Positions 7,009 to 60,324 of a DNA stretch of 64,000 nt are shown piece after piece. The position numbers and the translations under genes are program-made. Each line of letters starts with the position of its first letter. Position 1 is the first letter of the stretch. This DNA comes from a phage, in the NCBI GenBank assembly GCA_033286805.1, contig GCA_033286805.1_4727.1; one strand, 5' to 3'. The notes under the pieces were generated by a model. The model had not been told where the DNA came from. It did not search any database and saw nothing but the letters and a program-made list of their open reading frames with translations.

Positions 7009-8232
7009 TTATTTGGCGTCGTTAAAATAAATATCAACAGCTCGTTCCGTTGCGTAGAGGAGACCAAGATTCACAGTCCCAACCACTTCCGGTGAACCGA
7101 TGATACGGTTAGCGATACTGGTGCCACTGAAGATAGCATCAAGGGTGTGCCCGTCTTCGGTTTTGTTCACACCATGACCCACGGAAGAGACAACGGATTT
7201 CGCTTGAGCTGCGAAGGTACCTTTATCGCCCATCCCCGCACCAAGGTCGTAACGCATGAAAATACGGATGGCGATCTGGTTCTCGCCTAACGGATTACCG
7301 TCTATTCTCACGTTACTATTATTGATACGCCCCGTAGTTGCTTCGTTGAGTTTCAGTTCCTTAACGCGTTTAGCTCGTGCTTTATCCGCTTCACCGACGA
7401 GCGCCGCCATGGTTTCACTCATATCCTCAATCTGAGCGCGGTACAGTACATCGATCTGTACAACTTCACCATGAACGTCAGCACGTGGGTTATACTGACT
7501 CATACGACGTAATGCTTCAACGGCTTCCTGACTCTCATCACTCAGATCGGTCGCAATCGGTTCTTCCAGTGTTGCAAGGATCGTTCGTGGTTCAACATGA
7601 TCGCCGATTTTCACGAGACCACGAATGTTGAGATGAGCGTCAACAATGAGCGTACGGCTCTTAATCGATGGTGTTACGAGACGATCGGCAAGATTGTCGA
7701 AGATATACGAACTGTCCTCGTGAGTCTCTGGAATATCCAGAATACCGACAAGAGACAGAACACCTGCGCGCCAAACAACCTGACCTGGGTTCCACCAATC
7801 GCGTTTAAAATAAAGACGATGGAAGACCACCACATCCTGATCCTTAACGCGATCCCCGACTTTATAATCGGTAATGAGATCGTGAGGATAATACTTACCT
7901 GGTCCTTTCCCGATTATCGTACCGAGCTGGAAAACCTCTTCCCCTAACTCTGGATCGTCGTATTGTATCGTCAGCGCAGTTTTGGTGACCTTCTTAACAA
8001 CACCGTCACCTTGGGCGGCAGCTGCAAAGAGTTTACCAACACGATGCGCGATGACAGTCTCGCCACCCGTACGCCATGGTTGTACATCGTAACCTTCAGC
8101 AGCAATCATGCGGTTGTGCTGTATACCTATAAATACGAGACGCTTTGGCGAAATCCAGCAAAATACATTTACTGTGCGTCTGGATTGTTCAGATAAGGTC
8201 GTTAATCTTATCCCGGAGGCGATGACAGGCAC
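7009..8232 (-). CDS. Multisubunit RNA polymerase beta-like segment (middle region; probable downstream exon of a split beta gene)
   Basis: IQHNRMIAAEG...VQPW...RTGGETVIAHRVG resembles the bacterial beta HDDANRALMGANMQRQAVP...VGTGME region; MGDKGT...GHGVNK resembles GDKxxGRHGNKG; ORF opens only 3 codons upstream of a GTG. Confidence 0.6.
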   Translation of the reverse strand: MPVIASGIRLTTLSEQSRRTVNVFCWISPKRLVFIGIQHNRMIAAEGYDVQPWRTGGETVIAHRVGKLFAAAAQGDGVVKKVTKTALTIQYDDPELGEEVFQLGTIIGKGPGKYYPHDLITDYKVGDRVKDQDVVVFHRLYFKRDWWNPGQVVWRAGVLSLVGILDIPETHEDSSYIFDNLADRLVTPSIKSRTLIVDAHLNIRGLVKIGDHVEPRTILATLEEPIATDLSDESQEAVEALRRMSQYNPRADVHGEVVQIDVLYRAQIEDMSETMAALVGEADKARAKRVKELKLNEATTGRINNSNVRIDGNPLGENQIAIRIFMRYDLGAGMGDKGTFAAQAKSVVSSVGHGVNKTEDGHTLDAIFSGTSIANRIIGSPEVVGTVNLGLLYATERAVDIYFNDAK

Positions 8233-8609
8233 ACCGCCTCCCGCTTACGTTCTCACGCAAGAGCAGACTATATCACATCTCGTTTCAAACGGTGCTTCTT
8301 CAGCACCTCAACGAGAGTTCACTTCTTCCCAGCGCATCCAGCGCCATTCTCTTATCCAAGGAGAATGCCTCACTCGAGGGGTACCGGGGGATGAATCCCT
8401 TAGTCGTTGAACCTTTACCTTAGAACGCTTCACAGCGATCCTTAGGTACTTGGCTGCGGATTGTCCTTAAGCTATTATCTGTTTTTATAACCATACCGTC
8501 TTTCTTTTCAGAATCCGTTTTGGTCGATAACAGCGATGGATGTCTTCGCAATTCAGTGAATCTCATCTACATGTCGCCACATAGACGGACCCTGCTATTA
8601 AAAGCGTTA
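8231..8609 (-). ncRNA. Group I intron (ORF-less), approximate boundaries
   Basis: Minus-strand reading gives P-like GAAUUGCGAAG (about 8543-8556), Q AAUCCGCAGCCAAGUACCUAAGG (about 8447-8466), R GGUUCAACGACUAAGGG (8394-8414), S GAUAUAGUCUGC (8267-8276), in canonical order with GACUA/UAGUC P7 pairing; stop codon immediately at the putative 5' splice site. Confidence 0.75.
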
Positions 8610-11816: not shown

Positions 11817-12494
11817 GGGTTAGGCTCCACGAGGTCCCGTTAAGTTGCGTAATAGGAACGCAACCGTATCGTAACCAATATCGATGTTGAATTTATTTTT
11901 ACCACTTACCCAGAAAGCTCGCTTCTTGTGCGAGTTGGTAATTTCGTCAATAGCTTCCATGGAATAAAGAACGTTAACCGAGACCGTATCACCGTCGAAC
12001 CTTGTCTTCGCCTCAGTTCGCTACGCTGAGACCGCCTGCATGGATACGTACATCACAGGCTGCTTGCACTTTCATGCAAGAGGAGACTATATCAAACCGG
12101 CAGCACAACCTGCTACGGTAACCTACACTTCGAAGACGCTTGTCCTCTACAGGGTGGTAAATCCCTTAGTCGTTGAACCTGCGTTGTTTCACATTCTTGC
12201 AAACAAGAATGCCGTATTACTACGCAACAACCAGGCTGCTGATCGCCCATTGTTTCGCACCTTAGCACCGCTTACGCGGCTTTTCTTTCAGCCTAAGCCT
12301 CTTACGGAGGTAGTGCATCTCAACTGTTGTTTCTGCCTTTCGGCACCTCATGGGTCGTTGAGCTTTAGGGGTTCCCAGCAATTCGTAGGTTTTTCAAGCA
12401 CTCTCTTTCGAGAATACCGGACCAATTCAGTTAGTAAACAACATTATTACCATCCCCCATTCTCAAGGGTTAATTTTTTAAAATGATAGAATTA
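11814..12494 (-). ncRNA. Group I intron (ORF-less, about 680 nt), approximate boundaries
   Basis: Minus-strand P-like AAUUGCUGGGAACC (about 12370-12386), Q AUCAGCAGCC (about 12231-12250), R GGUUCAACGACUAAGGG (12160-12180, identical 21-mer to the other intron), S GAUAUAGUCUC (12085-12094). Confidence 0.7.
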
Positions 12495-25317: not shown

Positions 25318-25401
25318 GGCATCACCTATGTATCATTCTTGCAGGCATCAATGAAGCCATCACAAGAAGGTAACGTTATACGTCGCCTTCATGACTGTCA
25401 T

Positions 25402-25420
25402 CATGAAGGTAATATAGTCC
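25402..25420 (-). promoter_or_regulatory. Promoter-like conserved motif, copy 2 (catgaaggtaatatagtcc) in a divergent intergenic region
   Basis: Shares GGTAATATAGTC with the copies at 1711, 38520 and 51230. Confidence 0.4.
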
Positions 25421-25450
25421 TGTTATTTTTTTCAATACGGAGAATGTAAA

Positions 25451-36786: not shown

Positions 36787-37221
36787 TTATGTTTTAATAT
36801 GCACATCGTCAATCCCCTCGGTAATCCAGCCGATGGGAAGGACAATCGTTGTTATCGTGTTATGGGTGTAATGATTGAGAAAGTGGAAATAGTAATTTTT
36901 GTTAGACTGTTCGATCCGTAGGTCGAGGTGCGCGTCTTCAGGTAACCGTAACCAAGCACCGTACAGTTCATTAAACTTACGCTGAATTTTACCGGGGTTC
37001 ATTGGAACCCCACGACCACGACGATGTAGCTGACGTAATGATTCAATCAAACACTCAGAGATACCCGTTGTCGTTCCGTTATCGCTTGTATCAATAACGA
37101 TGAACTCTCGTGACCCACGACCGAGATAAAAGCCAGCGACAAAAGCTGCAGCAACAAAAATTATCGTACCGATACCAATATACCAATAGTAAGTATCCAT
37201 AACGACCTCACTTATACCCAA
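36787..37221 (-). CDS. small membrane protein (about 140 aa)
   Basis: N-terminal hydrophobic helix YYWYIGIGTIIFVAAAFVAGFYLG. Confidence 0.5.
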   Translation of the reverse strand: MGISEVVMDTYYWYIGIGTIIFVAAAFVAGFYLGRGSREFIVIDTSDNGTTTGISECLIESLRQLHRRGRGVPMNPGKIQRKFNELYGAWLRLPEDAHLDLRIEQSNKNYYFHFLNHYTHNTITTIVLPIGWITEGIDDVHIKT

Positions 37222-37787
37222 TAGTCGGCAAGCGGTTTTACCTTATTAATGGGCAACTGTACTTTACCGATGTTCTCTACATCCGCATCAGCGTAGAGAA
37301 CAATTTTATCATCGTCTCTTTCCCAACGAATAATAAATCGACCAGGAAGAAGATTACTCTGTTCAAGAGACGCAGTAACCTGCTGCGTCAAAACAGACAA
37401 CCAAGCAGGCATCAATGTTGCAATATCTAAGTCATTTGACCACTCAGCACGTTGCTCCACTGGACGTAACATACGTTCGACGGTGCGTTGAACCGTTGCG
37501 GTGATATAGCCTTTATCTTCGTCACTGATTGGATCAGGACGAGACACAAAACGTTCAGCAGGCTTGTGGGTAATATATTCATGCAAATCGATGAGTGGTG
37601 TTGTCATAGTACTCGCTCCATCAGAATGTAATTGGGTAACCCGTAGGGTTGTCTGCATGCTATTCAGAAGCGCAAAAGCGCCATAAACAACAACGATACC
37701 AAGTATAGCCAAAACAGAAATCATTAACGTGTATTGCATTGTCATCTCCCCTACATACGCATCTTGAAGATCGGTTAAAAACAACAA
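37212..37787 (-). CDS. membrane protein (about 190 aa)
   Basis: N-terminal hydrophobic helix LMISVLAILGIVVVYGAFALL. Confidence 0.5.
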   Translation of the reverse strand: MLFLTDLQDAYVGEMTMQYTLMISVLAILGIVVVYGAFALLNSMQTTLRVTQLHSDGASTMTTPLIDLHEYITHKPAERFVSRPDPISDEDKGYITATVQRTVERMLRPVEQRAEWSNDLDIATLMPAWLSVLTQQVTASLEQSNLLPGRFIIRWERDDDKIVLYADADVENIGKVQLPINKVKPLADYWV

Positions 37788-37840: not shown

Positions 37841-38497
37841 TTAGCTTGCAGCTTCTTCATTTGTATCAGGTTTGCTTCCCCCTAACAAACCGTCAAACAG
37901 ACCCGTATGTTTCAGGTAGAAGAGAGCGATAGCGCCCATTGCTGCTGCGCTCGTCGCCGTTAACGCAACCCCAGCACGATACTGCCATTTACGGTCAGGC
38001 TTTTGATCAAGAGCCATACGACGCATGTATTCAGCCTCTGCTTCATTCCGATGAATTTCGGATTCAGCCAAGCGGGCTAAGGTATCGCGGTCAAGGTTAT
38101 CATAACGTACGTTCATGGTGGTTTCCTCTTGTTTGGAAGTTGATTGCTTAGTGGATTCTTGGTCAACAGTCGTTTCAGATGGTTCAAACGGCTGGTTGTT
38201 CATTTTCTGATCTTTATTGGTCATGATAGACTCCTTCGATTTTTGAGATGAAATTGATTTAAACCATCGTGGATGGCGGTATTCAGTTTTACATGTGCAG
38301 TTAAGTTTCTCGTGCAGGAAAGCGTAAAAACGTTTTGCGCCTACACGTAAGGCTTTCAGCATTACCCATCCACGAGCACTCAAACGGTGTAGCTGTTGCG
38401 GTATGTCTAGTTTCCTAGCCAAGCGAAAGTATCTTTCAATCACTTCGATAGGAAACCATTGTTGTTCCACATCGGTGAGACTGAAAGTCTTATCCAT
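37841..38497 (-). CDS. hypothetical protein with C-terminal transmembrane helix (possibly two genes, internal start near 38224)
   Basis: Internal ATG at 38224 preceded by AAGGAG; C-terminal hydrophobic GVALTATSAAAMGAIALFYL. Confidence 0.45.
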   Translation of the reverse strand: MDKTFSLTDVEQQWFPIEVIERYFRLARKLDIPQQLHRLSARGWVMLKALRVGAKRFYAFLHEKLNCTCKTEYRHPRWFKSISSQKSKESIMTNKDQKMNNQPFEPSETTVDQESTKQSTSKQEETTMNVRYDNLDRDTLARLAESEIHRNEAEAEYMRRMALDQKPDRKWQYRAGVALTATSAAAMGAIALFYLKHTGLFDGLLGGSKPDTNEEAAS

Positions 38498-38541: not shown

Positions 38542-38629
38542 GAAAAATGTTGGAATAAGTTAAATACCGCAACCGCAGCTAATTTTATAGGCTTTTAGCC
38601 TAAACCAATCATCTTCGGAATCATCATCT

Positions 38630-48059: not shown

Positions 48060-48488
48060 TCAAATCCCCTCTTTCAGAATCTCATTGAGGCTATTAGCAA
48101 CCGCATCTAACTTCGTGCTGATTACTTTTGGTGTCAATCCGTATATTTTCCAAACTATCTGTGGTTGACGTATTCCATTTGTCTGACAATACATCTCGAT
48201 CGACAACACCATATCGTCGGTGAACGTCGTGCTTTCGCAACAACGAAGATAGGCAGCCTCAAGCAACGTCTTTCCTAACGTGGTACACACAAAAGTCAAT
48301 CGAACGCAACGCATAGACAACGTGTTCGCATTCATTGATGCTGAGATCGGCTGAATGTGTTCACGCAGTTTTTCGTCTTCACGTAAAAGTGATAGGGTGC
48401 GATGTAAGCTGGTGTGCTGAGCAACCAGTGAATGATAAAGACCAACGCGCGCTGCAGTTACTGCTGATTCGGGCCATTTAATTTTCAT
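48060..48488 (-). CDS. hypothetical protein (142 aa)
   Basis: ORF. Confidence 0.45.
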   Translation of the reverse strand: MKIKWPESAVTAARVGLYHSLVAQHTSLHRTLSLLREDEKLREHIQPISASMNANTLSMRCVRLTFVCTTLGKTLLEAAYLRCCESTTFTDDMVLSIEMYCQTNGIRQPQIVWKIYGLTPKVISTKLDAVANSLNEILKEGI

Positions 48489-48503
48489 GTTCGATTCCTC
48501 GTA

Positions 48504-48947
48504 TTAACACTGTGTTCCATTCGATAAGCGGGTGGTATCAAAACGATCCAGTTGGTGTACAATGCTATTAGCAACACGATGCAAATAGTGTATTTTGTCC
48601 ATTCGTGAAATCGCAGAAATCGTCCAGCAAGCCTCTGACGTCCAATAGGTGCCGTCTTCACTAAGGCTAACGTTATAAACTAACTTCGTCATCACATTTC
48701 TCGCCTTATGCTCAGCAGACCAGAATATGTTTTCTAACACATCCTTCCCCGTTTGTGAAAACACGAACCCAAGCTTCACGTCGAAGTCGGATGCTTCAAG
48801 ATTAACGCAGTGAAGATGATTCTCTAACGGCGCAAAAGAGGCTAAACGTTCCAGCGCGTTTTGCAGTGTGGGATGATCGAGCTTTTCGAGATCATCCACA
48901 GGTTGTTCAGGTACAATCGCGATCGATTTACAGAATTTAATTTCCAT
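48504..48947 (-). CDS. hypothetical protein (147 aa)
   Basis: ORF with AGAGGA RBS; palindrome 31 nt upstream. Confidence 0.5.
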   Translation of the reverse strand: MEIKFCKSIAIVPEQPVDDLEKLDHPTLQNALERLASFAPLENHLHCVNLEASDFDVKLGFVFSQTGKDVLENIFWSAEHKARNVMTKLVYNVSLSEDGTYWTSEACWTISAISRMDKIHYLHRVANSIVHQLDRFDTTRLSNGTQC

Positions 48948-48977
48948 GGTAGGTTCCTCTTGATAGATGGTAGTAAC

Positions 48978-48997
48978 GGGGATACCGCGGTATCCCC
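48978..48997. promoter_or_regulatory. Perfect 20-bp palindrome GGGGATACC-GC-GGTATCCCC
   Basis: Read directly; related GGATACCC-TG-GGGTATCC at 62562-62579, both about 31-33 nt upstream of a minus-strand start codon. Confidence 0.45.
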
Positions 48998-49004
48998 TAA
49001 GTCT

Positions 49005-49475
49005 TTATAACACGCCCCAAGCCATATTGGGTACAGGCTCGTTACGTTCGATGTAATACATCAAGCGTTCTTTAAGTTTGGTTAACGCCTCAGCAACGAT
49101 GTTCTCTATGGCGACGACCTTTTCCATATTGCTCATCGTATCCTTCCACGTGAACCATTCGATCAAATTAACGGTGTGTAAGACCTTGTTATCGTCGGTC
49201 ATAACCTGGGTATTTTCACGACGATCGCGGGTTGTATACAACGGCGTTTGTATATTCGTTTTAATACGTGTCCAAAGCTCTTCCAGGAACTCACTCGATC
49301 GACTATCTGCCGTGACGATAAGCTCACTACGTACTGATTGTTCTCCTCGCTTTTCAATAACAAATAAACCATCGTAATCGATGTTCATCAATTTACGGAG
49401 GTTATCATTGCTATTCCAGTCTTTTACAACGGCAGGAAGTCGGCTATTGTAACCTTCAGGCAATCTCTCAATCAT
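49005..49475 (-). CDS. hypothetical protein (156 aa)
   Basis: ORF. Confidence 0.45.
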   Translation of the reverse strand: MIERLPEGYNSRLPAVVKDWNSNDNLRKLMNIDYDGLFVIEKRGEQSVRSELIVTADSRSSEFLEELWTRIKTNIQTPLYTTRDRRENTQVMTDDNKVLHTVNLIEWFTWKDTMSNMEKVVAIENIVAEALTKLKERLMYYIERNEPVPNMAWGVL

Positions 49476-49905
49476 CGGTTTCTGCTCCTATATCACGTTT
49501 AAGGTCGGCCACCAGTTTTTCATAATGGTCTTTTATTACATTGGCAATAACGAATTGCACTTTTCTCACCAGCTGCTCATTGGCATCACTGAACGTAAGA
49601 TGCTCACGCACTTCAACCGGACGTGATACACCGCCGATATCGTAGACTTTGTTCGATGTACGGCGAGCAATCACTGGAAGCGGTTCCACGGCGGCCAGTG
49701 CAGTACAGATTTCCGTAACGAGTTCTTGAATGCTGCTTCTGCCTTCGATAATAACAGAACAGCGATAGACATCTACCTCGTTAAGCTGTTCAACGACATC
49801 AGCCTTGATTTTGAAATTTCCAATAAGCGAGCTCACCAAAGTGCTATGCCAGTTGTTCACCACCCCGACCAACAGCGGATGATTCTCAAGATCTCTTCTA
49901 TTCAT
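49468..49905 (-). CDS. hypothetical protein (145 aa)
   Basis: ORF. Confidence 0.45.
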   Translation of the reverse strand: MNRRDLENHPLLVGVVNNWHSTLVSSLIGNFKIKADVVEQLNEVDVYRCSVIIEGRSSIQELVTEICTALAAVEPLPVIARRTSNKVYDIGGVSRPVEVREHLTFSDANEQLVRKVQFVIANVIKDHYEKLVADLKRDIGAETDD

Positions 49906-50080
49906 CAGTTAGCTCCTAAATAGATCTACAACGAACTTTCGATGGAAGGGAGTATGTTTCCCTTCCTTGGGTTCGTTTATTGCGTTACGAAGCTTTACAG
50001 CTTGCGTAAACCACAACGGTTCCATTGTTGATTACCTCAACATCATCCTGGTCCGTTTGATCGCAAGTTTGGTGTCCGCA

Positions 50081-50425
50081 TTAACTCCCTCTGTGGTGCG
50101 AAAACAAAACATCTAACTGTTCCCGTTGTTCTTTTAAGCATGCAGGAAGCTGGTCTTCCCGTACCGTTCCGATTTCCAACGTGATGTACCAACGTTGTTC
50201 TGAGGCCTGCCATTGAAAACTGCTCTGTAACCGCAGGATGTTAGGATCACGTACCTTGTTTGCACTGTAACGGTTGAACCAATCCAGGTATTCTGCTTTC
50301 CCTTCCTCGTCGGCAACGTAACGCTGCACGCTGTTCTTCCCTTTGTTCTCGTATCCCGTTGCACGTATCATGCGAACGTTTCTCCTGTAATGTGTTGTGG
50401 GCGTTGTAGCATGGTAACATCCCAT
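50081..50425 (-). CDS. hypothetical protein (about 100-114 aa)
   Basis: ORF; overlaps the upstream gene, start uncertain. Confidence 0.4.
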   Translation of the reverse strand: MGCYHATTPTTHYRRNVRMIRATGYENKGKNSVQRYVADEEGKAEYLDWFNRYSANKVRDPNILRLQSSFQWQASEQRWYITLEIGTVREDQLPACLKEQREQLDVLFSHHRGS

Positions 50426-51150
50426 TGTACGATCCGGCTCCGGCTTACCAGCATCATGACGGATTCATCATCAAGCCCTGGTTGCGCAACCGGCAACCAA
50501 CGTTCGTTAAGCACCTTCGCTTCAACGCGTTTCTTGCGGGGATTGTAACGCACCTCGCTGACCCAAGCGAATCCAAGCGGATGCACAACCCGTGGATAAT
50601 ACATGCGAAGCAATTGATGCATTTGATCCATTGCCTCCAAGCTCGCATCCGCCAGGTAAGGTTTCACCATGGCAAGCTTTTTGGTGTAATACGTTCCAAC
50701 GGTATGGTTCGCCCACCCAGGAAGCGCGTGATGGAATCCTACCTGTAATTGTGTATTGCCGTTCACCTTCAGCCAACCGTATTGTCCCGCCGCACGTCCC
50801 TCGTCAGTATCGATCCATGTAAGTATATCGATGAACGCACGATCGGCGATCTCGATGCGTTCCACCCGTTCATCCAACGCACCACGTACCACGAATCCGC
50901 TCGCGCTCAGCCGTGCAGGATGCTGGCTACGATGTGCGTACCAATTCTTGTTGCCGGTAAGCAGGTAAGGATACAAGTGCGCACCACGCCAAACAACCTT
51001 TCCGTTCGTCCCGTCGACGCAACGTACACGCATCCCAGCCTGACCGCTGCTGTAGCATGCTACCCTCACGCATTCGTTTTGAACATCGCTCGGTAACGCC
51101 AGGTATTCATCTCCAGTAAACATGGTATCAAAAATCAATGCTTCTTTCAT
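50368..51150 (-). CDS. hypothetical protein (260 aa), first gene of the minus-strand operon
   Basis: Long ORF directly downstream of the large non-coding region and promoter-like motif copy 4. Confidence 0.5.
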   Translation of the reverse strand: MKEALIFDTMFTGDEYLALPSDVQNECVRVACYSSGQAGMRVRCVDGTNGKVVWRGAHLYPYLLTGNKNWYAHRSQHPARLSASGFVVRGALDERVERIEIADRAFIDILTWIDTDEGRAAGQYGWLKVNGNTQLQVGFHHALPGWANHTVGTYYTKKLAMVKPYLADASLEAMDQMHQLLRMYYPRVVHPLGFAWVSEVRYNPRKKRVEAKVLNERWLPVAQPGLDDESVMMLVSRSRIVQWDVTMLQRPQHITGETFA

Positions 51151-51229
51151 CTAAAAAGATCCTCTGTTTTTCACGTTAATTAAACAACGTATTGATTTCT
51201 ATTTGACACAATACGAACATTGTACGTAT

Positions 51230-51257
51230 CTATCACTTAGGTAATATAGTCGTGAAA
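51230..51257 (-). promoter_or_regulatory. Promoter-like conserved motif, copy 4 (ctatcacttaggtaatatagtcgtgaaa)
   Basis: About 80 nt upstream of the start at 51150; shares extended identity with copy 3. Confidence 0.45.
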
Positions 51258-51351
51258 GGATTTGCATTAAAGCAAGGGTTTTGTTTTTTAAGAAGGGATG
51301 GATTTAGAAGAGGTGTTTCAAGGAAGGTAAACGAGGATAGGTATTTTGATT

Positions 51352-51367
51352 TAAGTAAGTAAGTAAG
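51352..51367. repeat. (TAAG)x4 microsatellite
   Basis: Read directly: taagtaagtaagtaag. Confidence 0.8.
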
Positions 51368-51370
51368 ATG

Positions 51371-51516
51371 TTATCTGTATTTGTTAAAAGTGTATTGTCT
51401 AAGTTATCTTGTTTATCTTAGGTTATGTCTTATTGTTTAATCGTTTTATCTTTGTATGTTTAAGTTGTTTTATTTATCTTGTTTGTTTATTTAAAAGTAA
51501 GTTAATAAGCTTATCT
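51371..51516. repeat. Six direct TTATCT(T) repeats at roughly 30-35-nt spacing in a C-depleted T-rich tract
   Basis: Copies at 51371, 51404, 51413, 51446, 51474 and 51511; C is rare on the plus strand between about 51260 and 51520. Confidence 0.6.
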
Positions 51517-51733
51517 TCAAAACAATGGATAACATGTGTTTACCACCTTAACGGTAACACATGTCATCTGTGCATTACACTCCGCTATCACTTCGTTACA
51601 TGCTTATATGTTGGATAACTCAAAAAACATTTGTGATACTCTTCTTCACGTTGTTCATCAGAGTATCTCGTCTATACTCATTGCATTCGTATACGACATA
51701 ACCGTTATACGCTAACGCTACGCTTATAGCTTG

Positions 51734-51800
51734 ATAACTCTAAGGATAAAAACATAAACTCGCTTCGCTCGTTTAGTTTTTCTTTTTCTTAGAGTTATCC
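51734..51800. repeat. 12-bp inverted repeat GATAACTCTAAG ... CTTAGAGTTATC separated by about 43 nt
   Basis: Arms at 51734-51745 and 51789-51800; further GGATAAC-type motifs at 51527 and 51613. Confidence 0.55.
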
Positions 51801-51963
51801 TGTTGCTCGTCTCTAAAGGACTTCGCTCCTCCCCCGTCCCCCGAAGGGGCCGAGGTCGTGGAAATTTTACTTTCCAAATACATTTACAACATCTGTAAAC
51901 TTTTACTCCAGGTACTTAATCTTATCATTAGAAATTATAAAAGAGAATAAACACAAACATAAA

Positions 51964-51995
51964 CCTTCCTCCAACCCAACAGGGAAGGAGGAAGG
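51964..51995. terminator. Conserved stem-loop family member (CCTTCCTCC aacccaacaggg aa GGAGGAAGG) at the 3' end of gene 52012..52905
   Basis: Near-identical to the reverse complement of the 35967 hairpin and to the 63924 hairpin. Confidence 0.55.
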
Positions 51996-52011
51996 GAGAG
52001 ATTAATTAAAA

Positions 52012-52905
52012 TTAATCAGCGACGTTATAACCGAATACTGCTTTACCGTAGGTGTGAGTACCGTTAGCTAACGACAGCACCAGCACATGGTTGTACGTAG
52101 CGTTAACGCCCTTGTCAGTAGACTCGGTGGTAGCACCGTTATAGACAAAGGTAGCCGTTTGCAGATTGGCTTTCAGTTCATTGATGATATCATCACTTAC
52201 GCCGGTCTGCTCTTTGATCAGGGTGGTCAGGTTACCTGCTAAGCTTGCATCGATATTTACTTCGTTGCCAGTAATAGCTTGTAAACCTGGAGCGTAAGTA
52301 CTGAAGTCTAACGGATAGGTTAACAGACGTGCTGACGTTTTGGTACCATCGCCTTCATCAACGTAGGTTAAGTTACCCAGGTTGGTAACCTTGATGATGT
52401 TAGCCAGATCCAGCGTGGTGTTATAAACTTTAACTTGAACAGAGCCATACCACGCCAACGAATCTTCTTTGGCTTCCAGGGTGATCGTCTGGATACCTGA
52501 CTGATCAAAGGTAACCTGAGTAGCTAACGTTTCGGCTTTGATGTCTTTCGTTTTATCCAGGAACTTCTCACCGGAAGGCGTGATCATACCGTAGCGTTGA
52601 GCTACAAGGTCAACCACATCACCGATGGTGGTGTTCGCCTCAACGTTAACACGTACAGCGATCTTCTGGAACCACTTAGCCAGATCCAGACGATGGTAGG
52701 TGACATCGCGGTTATTGAAGTAAGGGGTACCTTCACCAGGACTAAGTGTTAAAGTTGCTTCTGGAGCAGAAGGATTCTTTTCTTTAAGGACGTATTTAAG
52801 GTCGGTGTATTTAAAGTTGGCACCAGTGTCGGCGTTGAGCTGGTTAATCTCATCAACGATAAGTTGCCAAGGTGTTTTTAAAGTAAGCGATACTTGAGCT
52901 GTCAT
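52012..52905 (-). CDS. hypothetical protein (297 aa), paralogous to 53048..53590; possibly virion-associated
   Basis: Shared segments with the neighbouring gene (TYHRLDLAKWF ~ YYDRLALSEVF; LAWYGSVQVKV ~ LVYTGTLQVAL). Confidence 0.55.
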   Translation of the reverse strand: MTAQVSLTLKTPWQLIVDEINQLNADTGANFKYTDLKYVLKEKNPSAPEATLTLSPGEGTPYFNNRDVTYHRLDLAKWFQKIAVRVNVEANTTIGDVVDLVAQRYGMITPSGEKFLDKTKDIKAETLATQVTFDQSGIQTITLEAKEDSLAWYGSVQVKVYNTTLDLANIIKVTNLGNLTYVDEGDGTKTSARLLTYPLDFSTYAPGLQAITGNEVNIDASLAGNLTTLIKEQTGVSDDIINELKANLQTATFVYNGATTESTDKGVNATYNHVLVLSLANGTHTYGKAVFGYNVAD

Positions 52906-53047
52906 TTTCTACCTCTATGGTTGTTACATCACTCTCAAAAGATGTAAGTGTTTACAGAAATAAGTATATTTTATATTAAATGTGAATAATATGGAGAACG
53001 ACTCCGAATCTCCTTTTCGACCATCAAAAATCAGAGGACACACAATC

Positions 53048-53590
53048 ATGGCCTTAGACTTTAACAAAGCAGCGAAATCCCTTCTGCTTGATCTTATCAA
53101 CACCAAAGCAACCCGTGCACTGGCCGAACAAGAACTGCAGTTCGGTACCCCGGGGGCATCTTCCGAACATGAAAAGAACACCGTTATTCAGCTGGACGCT
53201 GCGCCTGAAGCAGAAAACCTGCAGGGTAGTCAGCAGTTCTACTACGATCGTCTGGCTCTGTCCGAAGTTTTCGCTGATGTAACCGGCGACGTTACTTTCG
53301 AACTGCCGCACGGTACCGACAGCATCCAGGCTTCTGAACTGGTAAGCAAGCTGGTCACCAAATTCGGCCTGGCTTCCCTGAACGGTGAAATCAAAGAAGA
53401 AACCTTCCAGCTGTCTGCTGGTACTGTTGGTCAGGTAACTCTGAGTGCGATCGATAATGGTCTGGTATATACCGGCACTCTGCAGGTTGCTCTGACCTAT
53501 GCAGCAGCACCGAAAGACCAACTGGCAACTGTTCTGGCGGATAACGTAGCTGATGGCTTCGTGAAACCGACCGTTAGCGTTGTTGGCTAA
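53048..53590 (+). CDS. hypothetical protein (about 181 aa), strongly host-optimised codons, paralogue of 52012..52905
   Basis: Start placed at ATG 53048 after GAGGA RBS (ORF opens at 52982); codon choice almost exclusively CTG/CCG/GGT/ACC/GAA. Confidence 0.6.
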   Translation: MALDFNKAAKSLLLDLINTKATRALAEQELQFGTPGASSEHEKNTVIQLDAAPEAENLQGSQQFYYDRLALSEVFADVTGDVTFELPHGTDSIQASELVSKLVTKFGLASLNGEIKEETFQLSAGTVGQVTLSAIDNGLVYTGTLQVALTYAAAPKDQLATVLADNVADGFVKPTVSVVG

Positions 53591-53604
53591 TACCAATAGC
53601 TTAG

Positions 53605-53644
53605 AGCAATAGTATGGGTTTTGTACAGCTCGGCTATTGCTCTT
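53605..53644 (+). terminator. Possible terminator hairpin (AGAGCAATAG...CTATTGCTCT) after 53048..53590
   Basis: 10-bp inverted repeat with long loop 15 nt after the stop; U-tract weak. Confidence 0.35.
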
Positions 53645-53792
53645 CTACAATTTGGTTGTAACAATCTGCGTGGTTGCACGCTTATCTTTCTCATTGAGCG
53701 CTTCGTGTGAAGCGTGGTGTTGAAAGGGTTGTGGATCTCCTCAAGCGGCCAGGGACCCAGACCAACCTGAATAAACACGAACACCTGTTAAG

Positions 53793-53824
53793 CCCCTCCT
53801 CATCCGTTATTGGGTGAGGAGGGG
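53793..53824. terminator. Stem-loop CCCCTCCTCA...TGAGGAGGGG followed by TCTTATACGTCTTTAT
   Basis: 10-bp GC-rich stem between convergent transcription units. Confidence 0.55.
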
Positions 53825-53887
53825 TCTTATACGTCTTTATGCGTTCCGTTCGTTCTGGAGCGTTTTAGGACGGTTTACTGCAAGGTT

Positions 53888-54523
53888 TTATTCAACACTG
53901 AAACCGTTCAAACAGATAGCTTCGTAACGCTTACGTTCACGACGTTTACGCGCCTGCCAACCGTAAATGAACTTCTCGTCTTTCTCACGACGTTCAGCTA
54001 ATTCGATGTAATAGGTGCTCTGCATGTCCAGCATCGCATCGATGAGATAATCCTTACCAGTTGCGCCACGCTTAGCGATGTAGGCATCAAGAGCTGCCAG
54101 TGATTTGGGACCCATTGCACCATCAGCATCAATATCTTTCCAGTAAGTTTGACGGTTGTTCATGACGTTCAGGTAACGCTGAAGGTTCTTAACCGCAACC
54201 GTTTTACCTGCATTGATACCCAGGTCAAAGAGACGGTCAGCCAAGAACACAGAACGTTTCATGACTTCGTCAAGCTTCATCTTATCCCAGAAGTGGGTCT
54301 TGTAGATAAAGAACGCCATTTCCGTGGTAAGGTTACGCATGTTACCGTCCCACCCGAATTTCGTTTTCAGCGTGGTTTTGTACTGATCCGCAAGCGCTTT
54401 CGTAATGCCGTGGTTTGTACATTTTCCGCTGTCGTCTGGGTCATCAACATACCCGCCTTCAACATCGGTTTTGTCGCGAATGATGAATTCGCAGGTAAAA
54501 TCTTTTTCAGTAATCTTAGCCAT
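53888..54523 (-). CDS. Endolysin, GH108-type N-acetylmuramidase with peptidoglycan-binding region
   Basis: N-terminal EGGYVDDPDDSGKCTNHGIT matches the GH108 signature E-GGY...D.GG.T..GIT; length and C-terminal basic region fit a PG-binding module. Confidence 0.7.
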   Translation of the reverse strand: MAKITEKDFTCEFIIRDKTDVEGGYVDDPDDSGKCTNHGITKALADQYKTTLKTKFGWDGNMRNLTTEMAFFIYKTHFWDKMKLDEVMKRSVFLADRLFDLGINAGKTVAVKNLQRYLNVMNNRQTYWKDIDADGAMGPKSLAALDAYIAKRGATGKDYLIDAMLDMQSTYYIELAERREKDEKFIYGWQARKRRERKRYEAICLNGFSVE

Positions 54524-54625
54524 TAGAACTCCTCGTTGGAATAACGATTTAGAGGAACAGGGAAGCCCTAGAACACGATAAACGATTTAATCCAGGCAAA
54601 CCCCAGACTAAACTTTTCTAAGCGT

Positions 54626-54639
54626 TAGAACGCGTTCTA
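54626..54639. promoter_or_regulatory. 14-bp perfect palindrome TAGAACGCGTTCTA about 100 nt upstream of the endolysin start
   Basis: Read directly; too tight for a hairpin loop, so more likely a protein-binding site. Confidence 0.3.
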
Positions 54640-54649
54640 GAGCGCAATA

Positions 54650-56698
54650 TCAAATACCTTTGGTTCCCTTCACGTGATGTGCGATTTCTTCAACCATTGC
54701 ACGCAGGGCACGAAGCTGTTGGTCGTGTTCGTACCAACCGCCTAACAGAACCCCGCTATACACCATGGTGTCAAGACTTAACAGTCCTTTATCTGATACG
54801 TTGATCATTTCAGGGAACTGTTCTTGAACACGCTGTGCGATAACACCGATCTTCTCGACATCAGGATCGTAGTTGTGACGGAAACGGGCAAGCCCGCTGC
54901 GCGCCATTTCACGTAAACGTTCACTGAGAGATTCCGGATGATCTTTCAGATAACGAATGTCGTGTTTACTGCGTTCATCCGAGCGGATGTATGCGTTAGG
55001 AACATCGATGTTACTGTTGAAGTACAGCGCACTACCACCACCTGCAGAGTTCCCCCAATAGAAGCGTGTGATCTCACCGCCGCCATTCTCCGTGATGATG
55101 ACATGTTTACCTAAACGCGTACCACCATTACCATCAACGAAGACCAGTTTGTTTCCGCTGTAAGAACCCCAGAACAAGCGTGTATCGATGATGTGTGTTG
55201 CGGCGAGACGGGCGTTACGTGGTGTAGAATACACGGTGTTAACATCTTGCTGTGCATGCGCATCGGAAGCGATCCCGTAGTTCTGTACGTTACCCAACCC
55301 TACCTGCGCTTTTGTAACAGCATGAGGGTTATCCCGACGGTTGGCGTGAGCGTTAACCAGATCACCCGCTAATTTCTGAATTGCCCAGTTGGTAGACTGT
55401 GGTGTCATGTAACGGTTCGTTGCAGAACCACCTTGCGCTTCAGCTTGGTTAGCGGTTGGGTAGTTCTCAACACTTCCTAACCCTACTTGTGCTTTAGACA
55501 CTTGGTGTGGGTTATTCTTATCGGCGATGTGTGCATTAAGCGGAACTAACGCAAAGGTCTCAATGGACGCTTTGGTTGTGTTCGGTGCCATTAATCGGTT
55601 AGCTGCAACACCAGCACGCGCTTCTTCTTCAGAAGCCATTGGGTAGTCTTGCACATTCCCTAACCCAACCTGTGCTTTGGTCACCCTGTGTGGGTTGTTA
55701 TAATCGGCTTTATGCGCATTAAGCGGAATCAATGCGAACTGTTCAATCGATGCAACGGTACGTAGCGGCGTCATGAAACGGTTGTTCGCTGTTCCGGCTT
55801 TCGCCTCATCATCCGAAGCGGTCGGGAAGTTATCAACGTTCCCAAGGTTAACCTGTGCTTTGGTGACACTGTGTGGGTTATCCCGACGGTTAGCATGCGC
55901 GTCGACTAGATCGCCCGCCAGTTTAGCAATCGCCCAGCCAACCGTTTGTGCGGTCATGTAACGGTCAGGTGCGGTACCGGCTTCTGCCTCCGCCTTGTTT
56001 GCGGTAGGATAGTTCTGTACGTTACCTAGTCCGACTTGGGCTTTTGTTACTTCGTGTGGGTTATCGGTACGGTTAGCGTGAGCGTAATGCAGATCGGTTA
56101 GATCTTTATCCGCCGCTTGCATGTCTTTGCGTAGCTGATCGATTGCCGCCCAGAGACGGTTATCGGACGCAGCATCACCGATGAGTATTGCGGCTTTTAA
56201 CGAATAGATCGCTAAGCAAAGATGTTCGGTACCGTAAATAGCACTAACGTGGTGGATGTGTGGTTCAGGCGGATAGAGTTCCGGTTTGTTCTTGATGTCA
56301 TCCCAGTTGATCGGACGATCGTCAAGTTTGAGTTCTTCGATAGCCTGATATAACGCGTCAATAAGACTTACGTAAACACCACCGATGATACGATAGTCGT
56401 TAATTAACGTCCCCTCGATATCATCGTTGATAATGGCGATGGCTGCACAGATTTCTTTACCCGCGTAAAGCGTAGCGTCCTGATACAAGAAGATAGGTTT
56501 GTAGTCCACGCCTCGCACCAGTGTCTTACCGGTAAGCTTTTCAGTGATGACCAGACTTTCGGTGAAGAACGGTCCGCCATCAAGGGCGTAACATTTATTC
56601 TCGGTTCGTGGAACGGTATGTTCTTCGCCAACGATGTGGTTGCTGGCGAGTGTACCGGTCCAGTCCTCGGGGTACTTCAGGGTAATTGGTGTCGACAT
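54650..56698 (-). CDS. Tail fibre protein with repeated NPH-x-VTKAQVGLGNV modules and C-terminal intramolecular chaperone (peptidase S74-like) domain
   Basis: About 5 tandem modules of roughly 40 aa; C-terminal SDERSKHDIRYL matches the S74 chaperone SD-x-R-x-K-x-x-I start motif. Confidence 0.7.
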   Translation of the reverse strand: MSTPITLKYPEDWTGTLASNHIVGEEHTVPRTENKCYALDGGPFFTESLVITEKLTGKTLVRGVDYKPIFLYQDATLYAGKEICAAIAIINDDIEGTLINDYRIIGGVYVSLIDALYQAIEELKLDDRPINWDDIKNKPELYPPEPHIHHVSAIYGTEHLCLAIYSLKAAILIGDAASDNRLWAAIDQLRKDMQAADKDLTDLHYAHANRTDNPHEVTKAQVGLGNVQNYPTANKAEAEAGTAPDRYMTAQTVGWAIAKLAGDLVDAHANRRDNPHSVTKAQVNLGNVDNFPTASDDEAKAGTANNRFMTPLRTVASIEQFALIPLNAHKADYNNPHRVTKAQVGLGNVQDYPMASEEEARAGVAANRLMAPNTTKASIETFALVPLNAHIADKNNPHQVSKAQVGLGSVENYPTANQAEAQGGSATNRYMTPQSTNWAIQKLAGDLVNAHANRRDNPHAVTKAQVGLGNVQNYGIASDAHAQQDVNTVYSTPRNARLAATHIIDTRLFWGSYSGNKLVFVDGNGGTRLGKHVIITENGGGEITRFYWGNSAGGGSALYFNSNIDVPNAYIRSDERSKHDIRYLKDHPESLSERLREMARSGLARFRHNYDPDVEKIGVIAQRVQEQFPEMINVSDKGLLSLDTMVYSGVLLGGWYEHDQQLRALRAMVEEIAHHVKGTKGI

Positions 56699-56711: not shown

Positions 56712-59306
56712 TTATAACGTGACTGTACCTAATTTGGTTGTCTTATTGAGATTAATGACAGAGATCTGGGTATCGCTGGTCGTAATCGTTCCGATATTAA
56801 CGCGCTGTCCTTTATCATCTTCTTGCTTGTAGATGGTTAACTCCAGCTCTAACTGGTCGCCATTAGGAACAACGGAAACGTACCATGTTTTATTACCTGG
56901 TGAACTATTATAGTCTTTTAGGTTATAATGGCCTTTAGGTAAGGTCATGACCTTACCGGCAAACAAGCAAGTGATGTCTTCGTTGATGTAGATATCGTAA
57001 CCGGAAGCAGCAACGACCGTAGAAACCATGTAGACATGTTTGACGGTACCTGCGAGGTATTCGGCTACGCTTGGTCCGTATGCTCTGAATACCTGTCCAC
57101 CATTGGATAAACGGTACGCTTCCCCAAGGTCGACGTACCCCAGACCCCATACCGGATGGACGTTGTAACGACGTCCGCTGCTGGCCAAATACTCATAAAG
57201 GTCATCTACCGATAACCCAACCCACGCACCACTGGCGTTCTTAGCACCACGGAATTGAAAATCGTTTGCGTTTCCTGGAGTAGCAACGCGCACGGACATC
57301 GCCCCGGCGATTAACCAACCATCAGCGCATTTACGATACCCTAATGGTCCCCACGCCCCCAGAGTGTTGTCAATGTTATTGATTTGGTCCCGAAGCGTGT
57401 AAGTTACCGTTGTGACGACCCCCGTTACGGTAATGTTCCCTTCCCGAGCGCTGGTCGTCACTTCAGACGTCATGATAGCCGCCTTCCTGGAGACAGGATC
57501 GTACACCGATATGAACATCAAGCAGGGGGCCCCTGTGGACGCCGGAGGAACCACGATAGAGCCGCGTATAACGGAGTATCTCTCAAGCTTCGGCGACGTG
57601 TAGGTATCCCAACAAAGTTTGGCCGCTCTGTCGAGTTCTGCCTGCGTGATGCTTATCGATGCCCCCTTTAAGGCTAACGTATCAGGGTCGACCTCAACCC
57701 TGCTGCTTAATCTCCCTTCCTGTAGCCAACTGCCAGTCACTATCGTCTGGTCGTCGCTCATGTGAATTGTCGCGAAACGTTCGCTCACTGAACCGCCTAC
57801 GTGGACGCGACTGGTTGGCGGGAATCCCATCACATCGACCACGCTGTTCTTATAGCGATAACTCAAATCCCAATCAGCGGTTATTAACCGCTTTTCGAAA
57901 TTGCTCTGACCCCCTGGGATGCGGGATAAGACATAGACCTTGTTCTTCGCCGTGAAGCCAACGAAGCCGTGTGGGCCACAGGACCCAACAACGCGGTCCT
58001 TGATGTTAATCCAGTTCCCCACCTCGTACGCGGATATTGGGGTGAGTTTTGCAAGTTCGTCGAAGACATTACCAGCGTAGTCACCAATGCGATACGATCG
58101 AACCATCGGCGAGGCCAGGTTATCATTCACACAGCTGGTAACCAGACCGTCCTCGCGAATGACCATGTTCCCGGTAAGGTTGGCCCCACCCCATGCCCAG
58201 AATCCGTCTTTATAATCACGGTCACGAGTTGACATCGTACAAGGGCCACGAAAGGACACCGAACCATCGGAGTTCACTTGTAATGACGGCGTTCCAGCAT
58301 TGGGACTTAATGTCCATTGCTTCGTATCCAGGTTCAAATCGACGTACCAGATCGTTGTCCCCTGGTCGGCGATATTCACGGTACTGTTAGTGTACCATGC
58401 CGTCGTGCAGTAGATTCGCGCAATGTTACCTTTTACAACAGCGTAATTTCTAATACCCGCACGAATAGGGACAAGCGTCGTTAATTGACTAGGATACGCT
58501 GTATGGTTTAACACTTCCCAGAAAAGAATATGGTCGAGGTTGGTTTTCGTCGTTCCCTCAAAAATCTTTCCACTAAACCCGGTTTCTTTGGTGAACTGTA
58601 CAGCCGCACCATTTTTAATGTCCGATAACATACAGGTATGTACATCGAGCCCGTTTTTCCCTTCATACGCCCACCAGACTAACAGGTACACTTTGTTTTT
58701 GTAGACGAACGTACTACAGCGCGCCATGCTGTCGGTAATACCCTCTACCGACCCGGTACACATGGCGGCGACATGCTTCTCTACGTTGAATGTGCCGTTA
58801 GTCAGAACGATGTAGGGCTGTGTGTTCTCGTCGTTTGCGTCCATCGCGACACCCATCATCACGCCGTGGTTATGACACCAGACCGATTGTGGGATTTTAG
58901 GTAGTGCTGTAGGCCTATACTGGCGACTGGTACCTATGGCGGTATCGAGCAGCCCTTCACCATTGTTTTTACAGATAGCGTAATACACCCCGTTTTTCAT
59001 GCTGTTGGATGCCGAGCGAAGGATGGAAACACTCCCGTCTGCTTCCTGACAGATTCCGTAGGTACGACGTTCGGTCATGGCTATCGCGCCATCAGCTGAC
59101 CCTTCGATGGCGAGAGGGAAGTAACTTTGATCGCCAATTTGTTCGATATCGGTTACGTCAATATCAATGTACTTTTCCATCTCGGTGTTGAACTCTGCGG
59201 TGCTGTACGCGCCGAGATCGCCAGCCTTTAACCCTGTTGGATTGCTTCGACTAGCGATACGCTCAGTAACGCTGGTCACCAGTTCGCTAAATTTTTTCAT
59301 TGCCAT
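56712..59306 (-). CDS. large hypothetical protein (864 aa), possibly tail spike/receptor-binding
   Basis: Long ORF within the tail-fibre cluster; no motif recognised. Confidence 0.45.
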   Translation of the reverse strand: MAMKKFSELVTSVTERIASRSNPTGLKAGDLGAYSTAEFNTEMEKYIDIDVTDIEQIGDQSYFPLAIEGSADGAIAMTERRTYGICQEADGSVSILRSASNSMKNGVYYAICKNNGEGLLDTAIGTSRQYRPTALPKIPQSVWCHNHGVMMGVAMDANDENTQPYIVLTNGTFNVEKHVAAMCTGSVEGITDSMARCSTFVYKNKVYLLVWWAYEGKNGLDVHTCMLSDIKNGAAVQFTKETGFSGKIFEGTTKTNLDHILFWEVLNHTAYPSQLTTLVPIRAGIRNYAVVKGNIARIYCTTAWYTNSTVNIADQGTTIWYVDLNLDTKQWTLSPNAGTPSLQVNSDGSVSFRGPCTMSTRDRDYKDGFWAWGGANLTGNMVIREDGLVTSCVNDNLASPMVRSYRIGDYAGNVFDELAKLTPISAYEVGNWINIKDRVVGSCGPHGFVGFTAKNKVYVLSRIPGGQSNFEKRLITADWDLSYRYKNSVVDVMGFPPTSRVHVGGSVSERFATIHMSDDQTIVTGSWLQEGRLSSRVEVDPDTLALKGASISITQAELDRAAKLCWDTYTSPKLERYSVIRGSIVVPPASTGAPCLMFISVYDPVSRKAAIMTSEVTTSAREGNITVTGVVTTVTYTLRDQINNIDNTLGAWGPLGYRKCADGWLIAGAMSVRVATPGNANDFQFRGAKNASGAWVGLSVDDLYEYLASSGRRYNVHPVWGLGYVDLGEAYRLSNGGQVFRAYGPSVAEYLAGTVKHVYMVSTVVAASGYDIYINEDITCLFAGKVMTLPKGHYNLKDYNSSPGNKTWYVSVVPNGDQLELELTIYKQEDDKGQRVNIGTITTSDTQISVINLNKTTKLGTVTL

Positions 59307-59318
59307 TATTCACCTCAG

Positions 59319-59804
59319 TTAAATCGGCGAATCAGGTAATTGGCCATCGACAATCTCGGTAGTGGCCACTTTACGTGTCGCAGCAAGATGTGCTGTGCCC
59401 TGAACTTTGTTCCAGGTACCGATACGCATCACGTTTTTATAGCTGCTGTTACTGTCGCTCAATGTGTAAACAAAACCGTTATCCGTGACAGCAAGATAGA
59501 TCCAACCGGTTGATGCGCTAACACCAGAAACATCCAACGTGGTCGCGGGCACCGTTCCTGTTATCGTGTTGTATTCCGCTTCACCTTGGCCGATGCTGAT
59601 CCTCCCGTTGTTGTAGCTGGCTGCTGGAATTATTTTATTTCGGCTGAAGAAAAGGAACGGAAGATAACGTTGTGTGACAAGAGGTGTAAGTTTAGGAGCC
59701 ACTTCTGTCTTGGCGTACACGTTTGTCTGCGTCGTTGTTACTGAATGAGGATTCTTCTTGGCCAGGTAGGCTCCCCATTCAGAAAGCAATGTCGATAACT
59801 TCAT
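59319..59804 (-). CDS. hypothetical protein (161 aa), tail-fibre-cluster gene
   Basis: ORF in the fibre cluster. Confidence 0.45.
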   Translation of the reverse strand: MKLSTLLSEWGAYLAKKNPHSVTTTQTNVYAKTEVAPKLTPLVTQRYLPFLFFSRNKIIPAASYNNGRISIGQGEAEYNTITGTVPATTLDVSGVSASTGWIYLAVTDNGFVYTLSDSNSSYKNVMRIGTWNKVQGTAHLAATRKVATTEIVDGQLPDSPI

Positions 59805-59808
59805 ACGA

Positions 59809-60324
59809 CTACCCCATATAACGTTTTTGGCCGAGGATAAAGACCTTGTTAAGGACCACCGAGGTAATGCCTGACGCGTTGCAACTCACCTGCCCAACAC
59901 GAATCGCTGTTGATGAATCAGCCCCAGCACTACTGTTCCAACTCCAGCCGACCGACCCACCTTTCTGATGAATAAACAGATATCCGGTTTTGTTTGCCCA
60001 ATCGGAAGTAAGATTTTTGATGTCTAACGTTCCTTTCGCCAGAATATAGTCGGTACCAGCGATCATGACGGGGATTTCAGGATACGAGATTACCGTACCG
60101 CTGGCGGTAACGTTGCTGATGCGATCACTACGAATATCAGTACAATCACCGAAATACGCTACGGGGAGTATCCCCTTAGGGAGCTTTTTGCCGATTCTCG
60201 TATCGATAGTGTTTTTATCGGGTGCGTCGATTTGCGCTGCAGTGACTTGGTTAGGGTTATCCTTCCTTGCGTACCATGTCGTCATGCGAGCACCCAATTC
60301 ACTCATTTTTGTGCCCATTTTCAC
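59809..60324 (-). CDS. hypothetical protein (171 aa), tail-fibre-cluster gene
   Basis: ORF in the fibre cluster. Confidence 0.45.
   Translation of the reverse strand: MKMGTKMSELGARMTTWYARKDNPNQVTAAQIDAPDKNTIDTRIGKKLPKGILPVAYFGDCTDIRSDRISNVTASGTVISYPEIPVMIAGTDYILAKGTLDIKNLTSDWANKTGYLFIHQKGGSVGWSWNSSAGADSSTAIRVGQVSCNASGITSVVLNKVFILGQKRYMG

Follow-up and report, generated by a model that had tools for sequence, protein, structure and literature searches.

We investigated a divergent gene pair at positions 52012-53590 of a 64,000-nt stretch of phage DNA (contig GCA_033286805.1_4727.1; here called the window, always at its full length), and we conclude that its gp22-like and gp23-like products probably make up, as the two major subunits, the DUF7941 filaments of a nucleus-forming jumbo phage of the Goslar type. 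Region 51000-55000 aligned over its full length with Escherichia phage vB_EcoM_Goslar at 93.7% nucleotide identity and with no other phage record, and the window is colinear with Goslar from gp216, across the ends of the record, to gp030 when annotated Goslar genes are mapped onto it. Judged by its sequence, the window belongs to a close relative, though a distinct strain, of Goslar, a 237-kb nucleus-forming Escherichia coli jumbo phage (Chimalliviridae). A preliminary description made from the letters of the window had placed both genes exactly and sized the larger product correctly at 297 aa; for the smaller, its coordinates were right and its size of about 181 aa was one residue too long.

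52012..52905, minus strand: gp22-like gene; 297 aa, 89.2% amino acid identity to Goslar gp022, PF25613 E=4e-52, PHROG 1037, codon adaptation index (CAI) 0.547
53048..53590, plus strand: gp23-like gene; 180 aa, 94.4% amino acid identity to Goslar gp023, PF25613 E=9e-21, PHROG 2935 E=1.3e-20, CAI 0.732

The pair is already known through its Goslar orthologues (HOV27_gp022/gp023), which have the same lengths, divergent arrangement, spacer, hairpins and neighbours; few genes of the window have diverged as far from Goslar as these two. A Goslar virion structure combined with quantitative mass spectrometry recognized gp22 and gp23 as DUF7941 paralogues, estimated ~580 and ~2140 copies per virion, respectively, and counted both among the most abundant proteins unseen in the maps (bioRxiv 10.64898/2026.04.21.720040, April 2026). 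In the same work, purified Goslar gp22 formed filaments several hundred nanometres long, as well as bundles, without any virion component; AlphaFold predicted that the linker docks head-to-tail onto the next N-terminal domain; and the authors proposed a host-finding ‘fibre cloud’ attached to the peripheral baseplate. The basis for that attachment is phiKZ gp127, the protein that caps the gp139 band of the outer baseplate (phiKZ atlas, PMC13250141). Starting from raw sequence, we therefore mostly re-find a result of that 2026 preprint, namely that Goslar-type phages put capsid-level amounts of protein into a DUF7941 pair. What had been noticed in the preliminary description is confirmed, and its interpretation is partly supported. 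Copy numbers and gp22 filament formation come from this literature on 89-94% identical orthologues, whereas family membership, fold match, gene organization, codon adaptation, conservation pattern and fast protein evolution were computed here.

In the arrangement that we favour, each protein has an N-terminal globular domain followed by a conserved extended segment, and the resulting polymers would be attached to the baseplate at its outer rim. The gp23-like protein would serve as the minimal repeat unit, required at ~2000 copies per virion, and the gp22-like protein, required at several hundred copies, would add a variable C-terminal domain. The genes would be separate transcription units that share the 142-bp spacer, where each has a late-type promoter, and that have separate ribosome-binding sites and terminator hairpins. 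For the window phage, baseplate anchoring, the docking mechanism, promoter identity and the host-finding role are inferences.

Both products belong to Pfam family DUF7941 (PF25613, gathering cutoff 27 bits), which the gp22-like protein matches with 177.8 bits over residues 8-294 and the gp23-like protein with 75.0 bits over residues 5-175 (profile positions 4-174 of 276). Direct comparison by BLASTP gave a marginal 23% identity over 96 aa (E=0.002), and hhalign of the two orthologue profiles aligned gp22 residues 10-160 with gp23 residues 7-149 (E=1.4e-7, 94% probability). The recognizable shared segments reported earlier are thus backed by these alignments, and by sequence the two are diverged paralogues whose relationship is real but distant. 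Pfam and PHROG annotate the pair solely as DUF7941 and ‘virion structural protein’, and a custom hidden Markov model (HMM) of the family found no further DUF7941 gene among all window open reading frames (ORFs) of at least 50 aa. The gp22-like protein comprises an N-terminal globular domain (~1-166), a conserved linker (~167-198) and a variable C-terminal domain (~199-297). The gp23-like protein is a short form that has the N-terminal domain and a conserved C-terminal tail, without the C-terminal domain.

Structure prediction led to the same family. The AlphaFold2 (AF2) model of the gp23-like protein (predicted local distance difference test score, pLDDT, 89) had a phiKZ gp127 chain as its sole significant structural neighbour (E=1.9e-7, TM-score 0.72) and superposes on the N-terminal domain of solved gp127 (PDB 9xqd), a member of the same Pfam family; its N-terminal domain therefore has the DUF7941 fold. 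The gp22-like protein matched gp127 by sequence (E=7e-7). Identity between gp127 and the window pair is just 15-17%, and the systems differ in dosage and layout: phiKZ carries one gp127 per star lobe, or about six per virion, as against hundreds to thousands of copies for the Goslar pair, and phiKZ gp126 and gp127 adjoin on the same strand, whereas the window genes diverge. Fold searches for any known fold beyond gp127 returned only noise, and neither protein contains a receptor-binding, beta-helix, carbohydrate-binding, intramolecular-chaperone or enzymatic domain recognizable by Pfam, PHROG or fold searches.

DUF7941 has only 168 representatives among 1.84 billion proteins, and an IMG/VR scan with the gp22 profile found three loci only. 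DUF7941 searches by tblastn returned 52 and 120 phage records; among the matches listed, all were 212-322-kb jumbo phages of Erwinia, Pseudomonas, Salmonella, Klebsiella, Xanthomonas and other hosts, so that on those matches the family appears confined to phiKZ-like (chimallivirus-type) jumbo phages. Members fall into three length classes (~170-195, ~270-310 and 460-1480 aa). Phage SPN3US encodes eight consecutive DUF7941 genes, gp121-gp128, of which seven are full-length (265-303 aa) and one carries the module at the N-terminus of a 470-aa protein; in Klebsiella phage Kp24, two ‘bifunctional tail proteins’ of ~680 aa each carry the module over residues 1-150. These are same-strand tandem arrays or fusions to large C-terminal domains, and neither has the two-gene divergent layout of the window. 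The position of the N-terminal module at the head of long tail proteins, in Kp24 and in many of the 460-1480-aa members, fits an attachment module. The suggestion that the window pair might be adhesin-like domains therefore receives indirect encouragement from tail-spike-like proteins headed by this module in other jumbo phages and from the proposed fibre cloud, but no binding or enzymatic domain was recognized in either protein.

Codon usage speaks to how much of each protein is made. Measured against 30 ribosomal-protein and elongation-factor genes of E. coli K-12, the gp23-like gene has the highest CAI of 63 window ORFs (0.732; effective number of codons, Nc, 33.7), as the preliminary description had surmised, at z=13 relative to expectation from the window's own codon usage for its amino acids. 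It is followed by the gp214-like gene (0.716), the endolysin gene (0.591) and the gp22-like gene, fourth at 0.547, with a window median of 0.366. On this scale the E. coli reference genes themselves score 0.67-0.84 and cryptic gsp genes 0.24-0.39, so the codon adaptation of the gp23-like gene lies inside the range of E. coli ribosomal-protein genes. The codon profile proposed earlier as a check was thus elevated in CAI but not in G+C content at third codon positions (GC3), which is 0.51 in the gp23-like gene and 0.37-0.57 in other window genes; because GC3 is not raised, we reject it as the source of the bias, which therefore reflects codon choice rather than composition. No tRNA gene that could shape codon use was found.

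The same index orders the virion proteins of Goslar by abundance. The major capsid protein (0.80), gp58 (~2150 copies; 0.79), gp23 (0.73) and gp214 (0.725) score highest, proteins present in hundreds of copies score 0.53-0.57 (gp22, 0.57; sheath, 0.56; tube; gp209; gp53 with ~330 copies, 0.53) and low-copy proteins score 0.31-0.46. Across the nine proteins with stated numbers, CAI correlated with published copy number (Spearman rho 0.87, p=0.002). High CAI is retained in gp23 orthologues merely ~50% identical to the window protein. Our explanation is that gp23 codons almost entirely match the E. coli ribosomal-protein set because the protein is produced in amounts comparable to the major capsid protein. 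Codon adaptation therefore supports capsid-level synthesis of gp23 independently of any virion preparation, although it is silent on location. That codon adaptation alone picks out the thousand-copy virion proteins of a Goslar-type phage lends independent support to a disputed abundance estimate, and the earlier idea that these are abundant structural proteins agrees with both the published counts and the CAI ranking.

The pattern of conservation is consistent with polymerization through the linker. Across 33 orthologues, the gp22 linker (residues 167-198) is the most conserved segment, with 56% invariant columns compared with 36% in the N-terminal and 18% in the C-terminal domain (entropy 0.27, 0.57 and 0.85, respectively), yet its pLDDT falls below 50 in the AF2 monomer model. 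Conservation combined with predicted disorder is the signature of a stretch that takes up its fold on a partner. Evolution of both proteins is rapid: relative to Goslar, the ratio of non-synonymous to synonymous divergence (dN/dS) is 0.34 for the gp22-like and 0.30 for the gp23-like gene, whereas most of the 49 genes compared stay below 0.1, and dN is 20x and 9x the window median of 0.0032, respectively. Alleles of gp23 are ~49-55% identical in phages whose adjoining endolysin is 91-93% identical. Such fast, allele-like evolution fits an exposed protein.

Several observations weigh against filaments borne on the virion. The Goslar cryo-electron microscopy maps contain no gp22 or gp23 density, and chimallin and PhuZ were present in the same virion preparation, so self-assembling filaments could have co-purified rather than attached (bioRxiv 10.64898/2026.04.21.720040). 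The argument for baseplate attachment is an extrapolation from phiKZ gp127, whose low identity is given above. Metagenomic Goslar-like genomes also contain two types of deletion bounded by short direct repeats. One, found in L008 and L009, removes 741 bp (window 52505..53245) between 10-nt CCAGACGATC repeats and takes with it the 5' parts of gp22 and gp23 and the entire spacer; the other, in L010 and L011, is an in-frame 276-bp deletion (window 52400-52689) between two copies of the 14-nt TTAGCCAGATCCAG, at 52400 and 52676, that removes gp22 residues 77-168. Each type was assembled twice, probably from the same sample, and may represent minor variants. These sequences suggest that the pair may be dispensable, at least in some settings, and natural deletion variants bear on the proposed host-finding role. 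Finally, the phiKZ member of the PHROG to which gp23 belongs, gp143, is reported to affect holin timing, and phiKZ orf143 tolerates transposon insertions and is non-essential (PMC12676376).

The gp143 results support the alternative that survives best, in which the gp23-like protein would be a mainly cytoplasmic lysis regulator that binds the cytoplasmic domain of the holin and times lysis, its presence in virions being secondary. In plasmid systems, deletion of gene 143 delays lysis by ~15 min, co-expressed gp143 makes the holin trigger ~10 min earlier and blocks a truncated form of it, and AlphaFold 3 (AF3) predicts that gp143 binds the holin N-terminus (PMC12894885). The link between gp23 and gp143 rests on a shared PHROG, the custom HMM and synteny: phrog_2935 is matched by gp143 (177 aa) over its full length (E=4.6e-46) and by the gp23-like protein (E=1.3e-20); the DUF7941 HMM recovers gp143 at E=6e-6 from a 32-kb phiKZ locus in which the next ORF reaches 0.31; and the order of short DUF7941 protein, endolysin and two tail-fibre genes is common to phiKZ gp143-146 and window gp23-26. 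By PHROG and HMM, then, gp23-like is a homologue of gp143, with the same length class and the same position beside endolysin and tail-fibre genes.

Beyond that neighbourhood the two loci part. Whereas gp143 lies inside a one-strand spanin-holin-endolysin cassette, the gp23-like gene is outside any such cassette: it adjoins neither holin nor spanin, the endolysin is the only lysis gene next to it, phmmer found no homologue of phiKZ gp141, gp141.1 or gp142 in the 64 kb, and the nearest proteins with transmembrane segments are 15 kb away, with none within 15 kb upstream. The proteins themselves are remote from one another, as BLASTP found no similarity, hhalign gave a non-significant E=0.083 (with a shallow profile) and gp143 scores 18.3 bits against Pfam DUF7941, below the cutoff of 27; with similarity so remote, transfer of function is weak. 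The effect of gp143 on lysis was measured from plasmids only, gp143 itself bears the annotation ‘virion structural protein’, and codon adaptation of ribosomal-protein grade, equal to that of ~2000-copy proteins, is unexpected for a holin regulator. Because of the missing holin and spanin, the extreme codon adaptation and the remote similarity to gp143, we rank lysis regulation well below a filament role and consider it unlikely. As a separate observation, candidate lysis membrane proteins are encoded 15 kb from the endolysin by gp004-like (37841-38497) and gp002/gp003-like (36787-37739) genes. In the gp004-like product a long soluble N-terminal stretch precedes one transmembrane domain (TMD) at 175-195, a layout reminiscent of the class IIIb holin topology reported for phiKZ gp142, and the gp002-like and gp003-like products have N-terminal TMDs; none of these candidates has a family match in PHROG.

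Both functions might also coexist. Two 2026 papers assign one family two functions without citing each other: one names gp143 a holin-specific lysis regulator and mentions neither DUF7941 nor virions (PMC12894885), and the other lists gp143 as DUF7941 and does not mention lysis (bioRxiv 10.64898/2026.04.21.720040). These claims need reconciling. Members of the gp23/gp143 group could be the bulk filament subunit and, when free in the cytoplasm, a holin binder; virion assembly would then consume the free gp23 pool and so feed into the lysis clock, acting as an assembly-sensing timer. We give such a dual role only a slim chance.

An equally slim chance attaches to abundant intracellular filaments, for instance ones that scaffold or bundle tails in late ‘bouquet’ assemblies, that merely co-sediment with virions. 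Self-assembly of purified gp22 into filaments and bundles without any virion component, nucleus-shell and PhuZ material in the virion preparation and the lack of gp22 or gp23 density on Goslar virions are all compatible with this explanation, as are the abundance of gp22 mRNA late in infection and a codon bias that indicates high synthesis rather than location. It is opposed by phiKZ gp127, a family member resolved in a virion structure; by homologues recorded as virion structural proteins in independent annotations, including those of phiKZ and SPN3US; by fusion of the module to tail-spike-like enzymes, which argues for an extracellular, virion-borne role; and by fast, allele-like evolution, which is more typical of exposed virion parts. 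Capsid decoration, one sense of the ‘decoration proteins’ of the preliminary description, and internal (inner-body or ejected) head proteins share with the pair only a very high copy number, similar to those of the capsid protein and the inner-body protein gp58, and are largely refuted and very improbable, given that the pair is absent from the high-resolution Goslar capsid model, that neither protein matches the inner-body/ejected head family PF12699 in Pfam, that the sole structurally placed family member, phiKZ gp127, is a protein of the outer peripheral baseplate, and that the genes sit among endolysin and tail-fibre genes.

Returning to the locus around the putative filament genes, the divergent pair adjoins an endolysin gene in all ten related loci examined, and tail-fibre-like genes lie to the right of the endolysin. 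One Goslar-like metagenomic phage (L022, 1766-2878) has a 370-aa DUF7941 protein rather than the ~180-aa form at the gp23 position, still divergent from gp22. Separately, the endolysin gene matches the tail sheath and tube genes in CAI (0.59), a level higher than expected of an enzyme. The remaining features of the locus are as follows.

51964..51995, minus strand: gp22 3' terminator hairpin; -24.5 kcal/mol, z=-5.6, followed by a U-rich tract
52906..53047, no strand assigned: divergent control region; 142 bp, GC 0.324, containing both 5' untranslated regions and back-to-back promoter-like blocks
52954..52957, minus strand: TCTG in the mirror-image block TTTCTGTAAAC, candidate gp22 transcript start region, from the spacer alignment
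52990..52993, plus strand: TATG, candidate phiKZ-type late promoter of the gp23-like gene, with G52993 as +1; same aligned position in 5/6 spacers
52993-53006, plus strand: conserved 5' stem-loop of the gp23-like gene, directly after TATG
53033-53038, plus strand: Shine-Dalgarno AGAGGA of the gp23-like gene, from the sequence
53603..53643, plus strand: gp23 3' hairpin; 11-bp outer stem, z=-2.7, weak U tract
53888..54523, minus strand: endolysin (GH108 + PG_binding_3), from Pfam and Goslar annotation; convergent with the gp23-like gene

The AT-rich divergent spacer, first put at 140 bp, measures 142 bp and has a GC content of 32.4%, as against ~46-52% in the two genes; its blocks are conserved in six related phages. 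The gp23-like gene starts with the ATG at 53048, as in Goslar and all metagenomic orthologues. Two more distant relatives have TATG at the site equivalent to the gp22-side TCTG. Late promoters of phiKZ share the consensus TATG, in which the G is position +1 (PMC4666361), and by analogy we regard the TATG and TCTG sites as candidate late-type promoters. Sigma-70-like sites in 51100-54000 were not enriched (4 found versus 5.2 expected), which led us to set aside host-type promoters, and a replication-origin signal near the spacer was likewise rejected because GC skew merely tracks gene orientation.

Each gene does end in a conserved hairpin, as first described, although that of gp23 lacks a good U tract. 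The gp22 hairpin is conserved in related phages and shows compensatory stem changes in two of them (L012 and L023). Goslar-lineage phages share one gp23 hairpin sequence, even beside gp23 proteins that are ~50% identical.

The 860-bp gap between the gp21-like and gp22-like genes holds a ~340-nt candidate non-coding RNA (51618-51961, minus strand), which is a more novel item than the gene pair itself. In the gp22 orientation, a conserved TATG (51958-51961) lies just past the gp22 terminator and is followed by a short variable leader, a core of ~285 nt (51622-51906) and, at the end of the unit, a hairpin and U-run near 51618; a second conserved hairpin block lies at about 51505-51585. The core is almost invariant (~100% identity) in 17 distinct Goslar-like genomes whose flanking genes differ by 10-50%. 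It had no match in Rfam (at gathering thresholds and at E<=1) and contains no convincing ORF, its short internal ORFs being without protein-like conservation. By nhmmer it is absent from more distant relatives, blastn against distant phages returned Goslar only and a scan of genome contigs gave 0 matches.

On the minus strand the candidate RNA folds better than shuffled sequences (z=-4.9). In a 75-pair model, 99.8% of cells pair, and the rare substitutions are either compensatory or confined to loops. Four pairs changed on both sides, including UA to CG in four sequences and a CG/UG/UA series, compared with 0-1 in slid controls, and a UUCG loop became CGAA in one copy. Because the model was partly drawn by hand from the alignment and variation is scarce, we regard the substitutions as suggestive rather than strong support for a structured RNA.

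Elsewhere, the genome is 96-99% identical to Goslar except for strong divergence in window 48060-50371 and 56712-60318. In the former, the gp016-like protein is 56% and the gp018-like protein 36% identical at the amino acid level and gp019 has no match; in the latter, the gp026-like protein is 52% identical except for its last 107 aa, and the gp027-like protein is 84% identical with a dS of 1.3. The divergent patches suggest that cassettes have been exchanged in the neighbourhood of the tail-fibre genes.

The gp207-like gene for the beta subunit of the virion RNA polymerase, split at 8232/8607, has two group I introns in and beside it (Rfam RF00028, 55-56 bits; window 8244-8611 and 12063-12447, minus strand). 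Goslar has one annotated intron and an adjoining 491-aa gene, gp206, for which blastn found no match in the window. Lastly, the motif CTATATTAC(C/T) occurs at about 1690-1702, 25400-25450, 38560-38575 and 51232-51244 (approximate coordinates), in each case in an intergenic position upstream of gp214-, gp200-, gp004- and gp021-like genes, respectively. The motif resembles the phiKZ early-promoter core, TATATTAC, and probably marks early promoters of the virion RNA polymerase.

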